Shown piece after piece: positions 17,393-19,788 of a stretch of DNA of 33,900 bases. Under the pieces are notes generated by a model that saw nothing but the letters and a program-made list of their open reading frames with translations, did not search any database and was not told where the DNA came from. Each line of letters starts with the position of its first letter. Position 1 is the first letter of the stretch. The translations under genes were made by a program, and so were the position numbers. This stretch comes from a virus (Duplodnaviria; Caudoviricetes), in the IMG/VR virus record IMGVR_UViG_3300017912_003447, positions 1 through 33,900 of that record, one strand, 5' to 3'.

Positions 17393-18668
17393 TTGGTATT
17401 AATTCTAAAACCTTTTTTATTGGTAGACAACCTACACTTGCCTCGTAACATCTTTTGTTATGTAATATTGATTTAGCTGTGTTCACCATAGCTGGATAAG
17501 AACTTCTTAATAAATGATTAGCGTAAATCACTATGTCCACACCTGCTTTTATTAGTTCCTCTTCTTTTACTTTATTATAAGTAGATGGGACAACCACCAA
17601 AGGAACTTTTTTCTTAACATCCTTGAATTTATCACAGAAACTTAGTATCTGACTAAAATCATTAGTTTTACTATGAATCATAATACCATCAGCACCACTA
17701 TCGATGTAAGTCTTTGCTCTATGAATGGCATCATTAACATCTTTCCCTAAAATAAAACTTTCTATTCTCGCTATTATCATAAAGTCTTTCGTAACTAATG
17801 ATTTTTTACCCTCTGATATTTTAGTAGAAAATTTATCTGGCTCATCTTGAGTTTGATTAGAGGTGTCGGTAAATAAAGAATTTCGTTTTGTTCCTATCTT
17901 ATCCTCTATTATGACAGCAGATACCCCCATTCTTTCAAGAGTTCTAACTGTATGTTTAAAGTGTTCAATCATTCCACCATTATCTAAATCCACAATCATC
18001 GGTTTTGTAGTAACGTCAAATATCTCACTTAATGTTTGACTCACGGTTGTTATATCGACATACTGATTATCAGGCTTTCCCTTAGATAAAGAATGTGTTA
18101 AACTGCTCAACCACATAGCATCAAATTCATCGTTACCAACTTTTGTTTTTTCAACTATCAAACTACTTAAACCATTATGGGCTTCTAAAACACGAACTAT
18201 AGGTTTTGAATTTATTAATCTTGTCAACATTTTTCTTCTTATATCAGGCGTTGTACCAATTTCTTTTAAATGATTATGTAACTTAGTTGATGATACCCCT
18301 TTTGTATAAGGCACATCAATTACCTTACCTCCCCACTCACTTAACTTTTTTATAACATTCTCTCTTACTTGTTTTTGTACACCCTCTTTCCAATCATCTC
18401 CATGAACAACAAAATCAGGTTTTATTTTTTCCAAATTTGGAATGTAATCTAATGTTTCTTGAGGTATTACTTTCGAAACACCACGTAAATTTTCAACAAC
18501 AATTTTCCTTTCATTATAATTTAGAGCAGGTAATCTTTTGTAGCTTGCTATCGCTGAATCGGTTAATAATCCAATTATAACATCACCGTATTTTTTTGCT
18601 TCTTTAATTATATTTAGATGTCCATGATGAATTAAATCAGCACACATTCCTATATAAACTTTATTCAA
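17385..18668 (-). CDS. pepM: phosphoenolpyruvate mutase with N-terminal cytidylyltransferase domain
   Basis: PepM signature EDKxxxxxNS ([10 protein letters not shown]), [46 protein letters not shown]-terminal [22 protein letters not shown]. Confidence 0.96.
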
Positions 18669-19788
18669 AATACCACTTCCATATTCCGTTTCGTAAATAA
18701 TTTTTTAAAACTTGTATTTCAGGATTATTGATTGGAACATTTTCCCATGTCCTATTAATAATTTTTAAATCACCACTATCTCCATATTTTCTTTCATAAA
18801 TTCTACCGACCTCCTCAAACGTTCCATAAGCTCCATTTGGTGCGCCGGGATTATGCATACAATATTGTATATATTTGTTTTCATCAATAGCCATTATTGC
18901 TGATACACTCGTACAATTATACTCACTAACAGCTGAACGACTATCCTCGGTAACGTATATTCTATCCATGTCTAAATCTGATAAAATATCGTTTGGTAAG
19001 TCCCTCTTAAATACTCTATTCAAAACAGTATTTTTAAAATCCTTGGATGCAATCTTTTTCTTTTCAACTTTTTGATTTGTAATGTTATCGGTTACACTAA
19101 TCCAAGATAAAAAAGAATCGGGTGGATTATGATTTTTTGTAATACCTTGAGGTTCACCATGGTCAGCGAATACCCAAAACAAAGAGTTTCTTTCTTGGAA
19201 GTCAATAGTTTCAATTATATCCTTAAATAACGCAGCCACATCTCTTTGCTTTCCTCTTTCAGCATCATGATAGTGATTATATTTCAAAATAATAAAATGA
19301 TTTTCATCTGATGATAATTTTTGCATACTATTTATAAAATTTTTTTCATCAACATTTCGTTGATAATCATAAAAAATGAAATCTCTAAATCTACCACATA
19401 TATCATCTGGAATCAACTTACAATCTCTAAGACCAGGCGTTGTATTGACATCACTATACATTGGCCAACACCCGATTGTATTATCATCCCCTCTTGTTGG
19501 CGGCATTGCATGTATATGTATTTTCCAATCATCGGGTAGGTGTTTAAGTAATATCTTTTCATCCCATATTTTTTTATCCTCGTCTGATAGACCTGCATAA
19601 GTGTGTGAGTGACCAATGCCTGTAGCTCTCATTTCTGATGGGCGATTTCCTGAAAACATTGAAACCATCGTATTTACTGTATCAGGTTGTGTCAGATAAT
19701 CCCCAAAATGTAAACCCTTTGATTTAAATAATTCTTCTATCTCGGGATGTCTTGGAAAGGTATCAAACAATATGCAATAAATTTTCAT
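18661..19788 (-). CDS. alkaline phosphatase/sulfatase superfamily protein with probable Thr nucleophile
   Basis: YCILFDT (metal Asp), [13 protein letters not shown] (nucleophile helix), [13 protein letters not shown]; overlaps the pepM start. Confidence 0.7.

Follow-up and report, generated by a model that had tools for sequence, protein, structure and literature searches.

Positions 1 to 33,900 of the IMG/VR virus record IMGVR_UViG_3300017912_003447 (Duplodnaviria; Caudoviricetes), a stretch of 33.9 kb referred to here as the window, represent an estimated 18% or so of a phage genome. On its minus strand lies a gene for a 375-amino-acid protein of the alkaline phosphatase superfamily (the AlkP protein), followed by a predicted cassette for 2-hydroxyethylphosphonate (HEP) and its cytidine monophosphate (CMP) derivative, CMP-HEP. 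We present the AlkP protein as a candidate for the enzyme that attaches this phosphonate to a glycan. The gene and the cassette comprise the following features.

18661..19788, minus strand: candidate CMP-HEP:glycan phosphonyl transferase, AlkP/sulfatase fold, soluble, 375 amino acids (open reading frame, structure model, fold search)
17385..18668, minus strand: CyTase-PepM, a Fom1-type cytidylyltransferase fused to phosphoenolpyruvate (PEP) mutase with its 10-residue motif (PF01467 and PF13714; TIGR02320 over cut-off)
17012..17392, minus strand: N-terminal half of phosphonopyruvate decarboxylase (Ppd), short (TIGR03297 positions 2-122, below cut-off)
16564..17031, minus strand: C-terminal half of Ppd, short (TIGR03297 positions 171-287, below cut-off; PF02775)
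15809..16603, minus strand: short iron-containing alcohol dehydrogenase (Fe-ADH), predicted HEP maker (Fe-ADH Pfam families; TIGR03405 best, below cut-off)

The features found are those of a Fom1-type HEP cassette, namely a PepM with EDKx5NS, a fused PF01467 domain, Ppd and Fe-ADH. The best solved relative of the cytidylyltransferase domain is 5x3d (E 9.8e-58), which we take to be the Fom1 domain, compared with 2e-19 for ethanolamine-phosphate and 6e-11 for glycerol-phosphate cytidylyltransferase. The Fom1 cytidylyltransferase domain is described as making HEP-CMP (PMC9088020). This Fom1-type domain was the only cytidylyltransferase found in the window, and Pfam scans of the window detected no radical-SAM gene. 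The cassette has CyTase-PepM, Ppd and Fe-ADH in common with the early fosfomycin pathway but differs in having no Fom3, Fom4 or FomD, in lying within a phage glycan island and in carrying the AlkP gene instead. Between 15809 and 17392, two short genes together encode the split Ppd, and Fe-ADH is about 250-264 amino acids long, an arrangement that recurs in many phage cassettes.

Fold and predicted active site of the AlkP protein

The initial annotation had read five AlkP-type motifs in this open reading frame, with Thr in place of the sulfatase Cys/Ser, and both readings hold. ILFDT lies at residue 6, PDTVNT at 35, SMFSG at 43, HYHD at 172 and ADHGE at 208, with near-invariant residues among them that set them apart from chance matches. 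Homologues numbered 95 at the 90% level, and at 50% there were 162 clusters. In an alignment of 52 sequences, which also yielded a structure model (predicted local distance difference test score, pLDDT, 92.9), D9, T37, G47, D209, H210, E281, D282 and R284 are invariant. Among 89 representatives of at least 300 residues taken from the 50%-cluster library, T37 is retained in 82, H174 in 84, D209 and H210 in all 89, and D282 and R284 in 87 each, the misses at T37 and D9 being mostly truncated rows. Position 37 is Ser in two representatives and Cys in none. T37 precedes the conserved Gly by 10 residues, as the nucleophile does in sulfatases, and a weak profile match through the protein of locus L137 (see below) sets it in register with that nucleophile. 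The C/S-x-P-x-R maturation motif is not present, with T-V-N-T-M at residues 37-41 instead.

19762..19764, minus strand: Asp9 (ILFDT), predicted metal ligand (invariant in the alignments)
19678..19680, minus strand: Thr37, predicted nucleophile, first residue of helix 37-46 (conservation; helix start in the model)
19267..19269, minus strand: His174 (HYHD), conserved active-site His (84/89 representatives)
19159..19164, minus strand: Asp209-His210 (ADHG), predicted metal ligands (89/89 each)
18937..18948, minus strand: Glu281-Asp282-x-Arg284, family-specific C-terminal motif, predicted substrate contact (conservation)

The superfamily metal ligands and a Ser/Thr/formylglycine-type nucleophile at a helix start thus appear to be present, Asp9 and Asp209/His210 presumably serving as ligands and Thr37 as nucleophile as in the ligand pattern of the superfamily.

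Family profiles were uninformative: Pfam and PHROG assigned the protein to no family, NCBIfam gave nothing near a cut-off and one spurious SigE match, and A1 and A2, compared by sequence with solved structures, returned noise only. PF00884 did not match the window protein and matched 2 of 30 distant members weakly, below cut-off. Structural comparison placed the model over its full length in the sulfatase/YejM/LtaS branch (Foldseek E 2e-8). The best structural matches were YejM/PbgA and S1 sulfatases (Z 22-23, root-mean-square deviation 3.4-3.5, 289-310 residues aligned), including an S1 sulfatase at Z 23.0 (deviation 3.4, 299 aligned) and PbgA at 22.4. LtaS scored 19.7, phosphonate monoester hydrolase 18.6, BcsG 17.8 and EptC 17.5. 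Nucleotide pyrophosphatases (NPPs) reached Z 14.4-15.1, at ranks 43-50 among the matches listed and mostly over model residues 1-274, and phosphonoacetate hydrolase (PhnA) was not among the best 50 structural matches listed. The Atlas look-alikes of the AlkP protein are sulfatase-like clusters. The model therefore places the AlkP superfamily core fold in the 375-residue protein. Of the relatives that the initial annotation had proposed for comparison, LtaS belongs to the matching branch, and the nearest structures are those of YejM/PbgA, the S1 sulfatases and LtaS, with NPP further away. The enzyme had also been called soluble, and we detected no membrane segment: the first core strand opens the protein, and the highest 19-residue hydropathy is 0.51. 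Four of the 89 relatives attain 1.6, in each case away from the N-terminus.

LtaS, EptA, BcsG, GacH and YejM (PbgA) share with the AlkP protein the fold, Thr at the nucleophile position, a single-metal ligand pattern and a glycan as predicted acceptor. The window protein differs from the LtaS/EptA group in its lack of a membrane segment, in its 10-14% identity and in its predicted CMP-phosphonate donor, whereas enzymes of the LtaS/EptA/BcsG group are described as membrane-anchored and as taking headgroups from phospholipids (bioRxiv 10.64898/2026.09.23.753746). The S1 formylglycine sulfatases and phosphonate monoester hydrolase are the best full-length matches, C-terminal sheet included (Z 18-23), but unlike S1 sulfatases the window protein has Thr, no C/S-x-P-x-R, no PF00884 and a biosynthetic context. 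NPP and PhnA, in which the nucleophile is Thr, have the superfamily and nucleotide or phosphonate substrates in common with it; they differ in a lower, partial structural match for the NPPs, and the window protein has one conserved His outside the DH motif and no evident second metal site (H174 is conserved, D175 is variable, and no further conserved His follows DH in the alignments). The 375-residue protein is not a member of the LtaS/EptA group or the formylglycine sulfatases, and is probably not an NPP.

Linkage and fusion to the phosphonate cassette

We compared 98 loci, comprising 16 viral loci, the best 80 of 115 metagenome matches and 2 reached via pepM, with some contigs in both collections. 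The AlkP gene lies within 1.5 kb of the cassette at 85 loci, 3 are cut off and 10 are without a cassette. Dereplication of 95 near-complete sequences at 95% identity left 64 types (43 upstream of the cassette, 9 inside it, 5 fused, 6 without it and 1 truncated), so that 57 of the 63 non-truncated types are cassette-linked. Two gene orders occur, with the AlkP gene either upstream of CyTase-PepM or between CyTase-PepM and PpdA, and in the second order the other neighbours differ: all 8 divergent-context loci are without the gene for the 253-residue upstream neighbour, the DUF5672 gene and the other unnamed genes of the window. The phage of locus L143 carries a 30%-identical AlkP member inside an HEP cassette island with different flanking genes, structural-looking on both sides as judged by eye, and LicD, TagF and cytidine diphosphate (CDP)-alcohol transferase were not found there.

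The association extends to gene fusion. Locus L012 encodes AlkP-CyTase-PepM as a single 801-residue frame, and all 10 homologues of at least 743 residues (743-2120) carry PF01467 and PF13714 in the same AlkP-CyTase-PepM arrangement. One fusion cluster counts 68 members, which rules out an assembly error. The Ppm fusion partners listed by Rice et al. are PF12804, PF01467 and thiamine pyrophosphate (TPP) domains only (PMC6697681), a count that is blind to the AlkP family because it is Pfam-based. The co-occurrence with pepM on which the initial annotation had staked its proposal is therefore borne out by both linkage and fusion. Its other argument, the overlap between the AlkP stop and the pepM start, is real (8 nt, onto the TTG start of CyTase-PepM) but was dropped as evidence of coupling, since 25 of 30 gene pairs in the cluster overlap.

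Exchange with LicD and TagF

The window had been reported to have no recognisable LicD, TagF, Stealth or CDP-alcohol phosphotransferase. We confirmed this by Pfam (0/40 window open reading frames) and by six-frame searches of the window, with the qualification that the Stealth search gave no match anywhere, controls included, and so had no positive control. Relatives that are 51-53% complete are likewise without LicD, TagF and CDP-alcohol transferase.

A PepM profile retrieved 31 viral pepM loci, 14 of which carry the AlkP family, and whole records were searched for LicD and TagF. The AlkP-bearing records (these 14 and the window, 15 in all) contained LicD once and TagF never. The 17 AlkP-less records comprised 11 with LicD, 3 with TagF, 2 with a PF00884 protein and 1 without any such transferase (L141, 36% complete). 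LicD (PF04991) and TagF (PF04464), unrelated families with no sequence match to the AlkP protein, can occupy the same slot: directly upstream of pepM we observed TagF in L107/L128 and L121, LicD in L127, L134 and L136, and a second Thr-type sulfatase-fold protein in L129 and L137. LicD-like genes are also named in 2-aminoethylphosphonate (AEP) clusters by Rice et al. (PMC6697681). For statistics, PepM clusters at 75% gave 14 lineages plus the frameshifted L139 as test units. With one mixed lineage split and L143 added, LicD or TagF was present in 1/6 AlkP-type units versus 10/11 others (Fisher p = 0.005; p = 0.013 with one AlkP lineage fewer), a result that we regard as support and not proof, the records being fragmentary and the lineages not fully independent. 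Fusions among 30 distant members scanned were to GT2 glycosyltransferases (3), LicD (2) and a DegT aminotransferase (1).

The proteins at L129:8094-9542 and L137:8121-9557 form a separate Thr-nucleophile sulfatase-fold family directly upstream of CyTase-PepM, in records without LicD or TagF. We treat them as distinct from the AlkP family, the profile comparison being non-significant (probability 2.9%), and our searches found no additional viral loci or long fusions of this family. At L123:8182-9573, L124:932-2323 and L126:2921-4303, in a group of LicD-bearing phages, the gene directly upstream of CyTase-PepM encodes a 460-residue protein that Pfam does not clearly assign. The PepM-like proteins of L015 (11740-12612), L140 and L141 are without the canonical EDKx5NS (EDNPSPKRCS in L015), so that motif filters would miss them; their cassettes also hold Ppd, an aminotransferase and a cytidylyltransferase.

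The surrounding glycan island

The AlkP gene and the cassette are embedded in a larger set of genes.

19785..20546, minus strand: unnamed 253-residue protein, upstream neighbour of the AlkP gene, probably a GT-A-type glycosyltransferase (GT) (Atlas look-alikes; no Pfam)
4610..30368, minus strand: 31-gene glycan island with GT2, GT4, GT9 and MUCI70-/PLOD-like GTs, nucleoside diphosphate (NDP)-sugar enzymes and methyltransferases (Pfam)

The island is the predicted source of the acceptor glycan. A hydrophobicity scan of its 31 genes found no membrane protein; the top value, 1.65, falls at the N-terminus of DUF5672, which is probably over-extended. Several island proteins have no Pfam family assignment. 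The 253-residue neighbour has no Pfam match, its single-sequence fold reached a pLDDT of just 32, and its Atlas look-alikes are GT8/PF03407, on about 20% of members. Outside the window's phage clade it does not accompany the cassette (0/8 divergent-context loci); together with DUF5672 it occurs at only 10 of the 31 viral pepM loci, all of the window's clade.

Proposed mechanism

We consider it likely that the AlkP protein is a soluble transferase that moves HEP from CMP-HEP through a Thr adduct to a phage-built glycan in a ping-pong reaction. This reading is supported by context, namely linkage, fusion and exchange, and the activity is inferred from it. CyTase-PepM, the split Ppd and Fe-ADH would, on their family matches, convert PEP to HEP and then to CMP-HEP. 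A single metal held at D9, T37, D209 and H210 would activate T37 for attack on the phosphonyl phosphorus with release of CMP, and H174 may act as general acid, a chemistry that we assume to follow LtaS/EptA-type enzymes. A sugar hydroxyl of a glycan made by the neighbouring GTs would then take HEP from the Thr adduct, an acceptor suggested by the LicD/TagF exchange and the GT fusions. The weakest step is the location of this glycan. It would most likely be cytoplasmic, on virion proteins, a first guess because the island has no membrane proteins and the islands of L016 and L143 have neighbours that, judged by eye, resemble structural genes; we hold this about evenly balanced against host surface or DNA. 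All three, DNA, host surface and virion, are described as targets of phage glycosyltransferases (PMC12619734).

More broadly, these loci may represent a new class of phosphonyl transferase, soluble and AlkP-fold, using a nucleotide-activated rather than a lipid donor and standing beside the LicD, TagF and CDP-alcohol transferases. Thr-type AlkP proteins would then have been recruited at least twice in phages (the AlkP and L129/L137 families), fused to a donor-making enzyme and coating virions or bacterial flagellar proteins with HEP. We judge the case for this wider proposal to be evenly poised.

Several observations weigh against the proposed transferase. The AlkP superfamily consists mostly of hydrolases. 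Production of CMP-HEP is itself only predicted, because the Ppd halves and Fe-ADH are short and fall under the NCBIfam equivalog cut-offs. The window covers little of its genome, and most of the records compared are fragments, many of them close kin. The five fused types form one branch in a quick tree, from which the P0103 fusion with its other linker was left out, and fusion thus apparently had one origin. The two distant LicD fusions also count here, as do L015 and the Bacteroidota metagenome-assembled genome (MAG) L170, which carry both AlkP and LicD, L170 without a real pepM. In the 94 kb of L142 there is a CDP-alcohol phosphotransferase but no pepM; L013, L014 and L016 carry a stand-alone cytidylyltransferase and no pepM in their records (up to 87% complete); and in planctomycete G141 the AlkP gene follows a large gene resembling a nonribosomal peptide synthetase, with pepM elsewhere.

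The 10 loci without a cassette point the same way. Five of them share one clean deletion and show 0-2 changes at conserved columns. In two other cassette-less copies, with unique junctions, 6 and 5 of 63 conserved columns are changed, and one of the two has lost H174 (to Leu); the 82 linked copies have a median of 0 and a maximum of 3 changes at these columns, which were defined on the linked copies themselves. In favour of the transferase, the two most-changed copies fit decay after cassette loss. The shared deletion, seen in L008:11164-11245 against L004:11174-13968 and also in L048, L049, L058 and L060, removes the whole cassette cleanly (about 2.8 kb), and its junction follows two different AlkP alleles, which suggests recombination.

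Alternative explanations

The AlkP protein could instead be a hydrolase that removes CMP from a CMP-phosphonate, or that strips or edits phosphonate esters of glycans, for example on the host surface or for the recycling of phosphorus. Sulfatases make up most of its top fold matches, phosphonate monoester hydrolase reaches Z 18.6, and a precedent exists in FomD, proposed to cleave CMP off 2-hydroxypropylphosphonate (HPP)-CMP in fosfomycin synthesis (PMC9088020). Hydrolysis would also explain why the gene survives loss of the cassette and why it co-occurs with or is fused to LicD. However, such an activity would be futile here, as no step in the window needs a temporary CMP handle (there being no radical-SAM gene), and it leaves unexplained the scarcity of LicD and TagF alongside AlkP, the filling of the slot where AlkP is absent, and the GT fusions. 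We therefore consider a hydrolase unlikely.

A second possibility is a general transferase of CDP- or CMP-activated phospho-groups such as glycerol phosphate, phosphocholine or amino-acid phosphates, for which the phosphonate cassette is one donor source among others; the donor of the window enzyme may then be a different one. The neighbours of distant members include a stand-alone cytidylyltransferase in L013 and L016, a LicC-like transferase in L170 and, in L169, a HAD phosphatase together with two nucleotidyltransferases, and the five cassette-less copies with the shared deletion look intact. A general transferase is probably a better description of the distant members than of the window protein, for which we hold it to be quite improbable: the sole cytidylyltransferase found in the window is Fom1-type, and the close family is fused to such a domain.

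Least probable, and very much so, is that another gene transfers the phosphonate (the 253-residue neighbour, DUF5672 or one elsewhere in phage or host), AlkP performing a side step or acting in an LtaS/EptA-like two-step relay whose intermediate is a lipid or is made by LicD; the roughly 18% completeness of the genome, the island proteins without a family and the LicD fusions leave room for it, but both named neighbours are missing from all divergent-context loci, neither the AlkP protein nor the island has a membrane domain, and the 51-53% complete relatives are without LicD, TagF and CDP-alcohol transferase.

Distribution of the wider family

The wider AlkP family also occurs outside phosphonate settings, and it is not in every case a substitute for LicD. 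With the close profile, no homologue was found in GTDB; searches of 50,697 phage records and 72,556 plasmids (plasmid query P0114) were also negative. The wide profile matched 2/401 genomes of the planctomycete phylum and 1/401 of the Bacteroidota phylum, the centre genome counted each time, and an order-level search added just two further marginal matches.

At L169:6995-16795, in planctomycete MAG G041, a 3266-residue GT2/GT4/TPR protein contains two AlkP domains in tandem plus an additional fragment. It adjoins fliD as well as the nucleotidyltransferase and phosphatase genes mentioned above, and the locus is a candidate flagellar glycosylation machine. The same MAG holds a CyTase-PepM/Ppd/Fe-ADH operon on another contig with no adjacent transferase; LicD and TagF were not found in this incomplete genome. 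In the smaller phages of L013:10001-12371 and L016:10001-14984, AlkP occurs with a stand-alone cytidylyltransferase and glycosyltransferases, without pepM; L013 has DUF2061 and L016 a similar gene, to which L016 adds a B12 radical-SAM gene. At L143:5410-7578 the C-terminal half of Ppd is fused to GT2 and a DXD glycosyltransferase domain.

Relation to earlier work

In the literature searched, which covered subscription papers sparsely, neither this AlkP family nor a fusion of AlkP to PepM is described, and neither is an AlkP transferase with a nucleotide donor. A paper on the Nitrosopumilus methylphosphonate cluster reportedly mentions sulfatase-like genes. Sulfatase-annotated genes are noted in the Selenomonas phosphonate gene cluster family GCF 400 (PMC8942020), so the general idea may already have been voiced. 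The only viral Ppm reported by Li and Horsman, whose survey included 364 huge-phage genomes, is from a giant virus. Decoration of cell surfaces is considered the purpose of most bacterial phosphonate synthesis, and the tailoring steps after PepM are termed "enigmatic" by Rice et al. (PMC6697681).

Enzymes that attach C-P compounds to sugar chains are still largely unproven. The AlkP protein offers a small soluble candidate with its donor-making enzymes adjacent or in the same polypeptide, which makes the attachment step testable in the tube. If the proposal is true, AlkP transferase chemistry extends from lipid to nucleotide donors, phages would emerge as makers of HEP-esterified glycans, and the sulfatase-annotated genes of other phosphonate clusters, such as GCF 400, may be accounted for.

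Other features of the window and related phages

Window proteins match clamp-loader, exonuclease and HNH families in a PHROG-type profile scan. A Gp23 search was positive in 1 of 5 related records, that one outside the window's own clade, so a T4-like label rests on the clamp-loader match. Window scans returned no tRNAs and no Rfam matches. Between 292 and 2075 there is no open reading frame of at least 90 residues, and GC content climbs to 44% at 1001-2000, compared with about 32% in other parts. DUF1599 (nucleotide modification associated domain 1), at 32600-32983, lies near the glycan island, and DNA is accordingly a possible target of some island enzymes.

The search of phage records did not find the AlkP family in the cultured Vibrio phage Va2 (L181:4095-10200, MW073017.1), where an annotated PEP mutase and a TPP-binding protein lie around ribonucleotide reductase genes. 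Va2 may provide a laboratory system for phage phosphonates.

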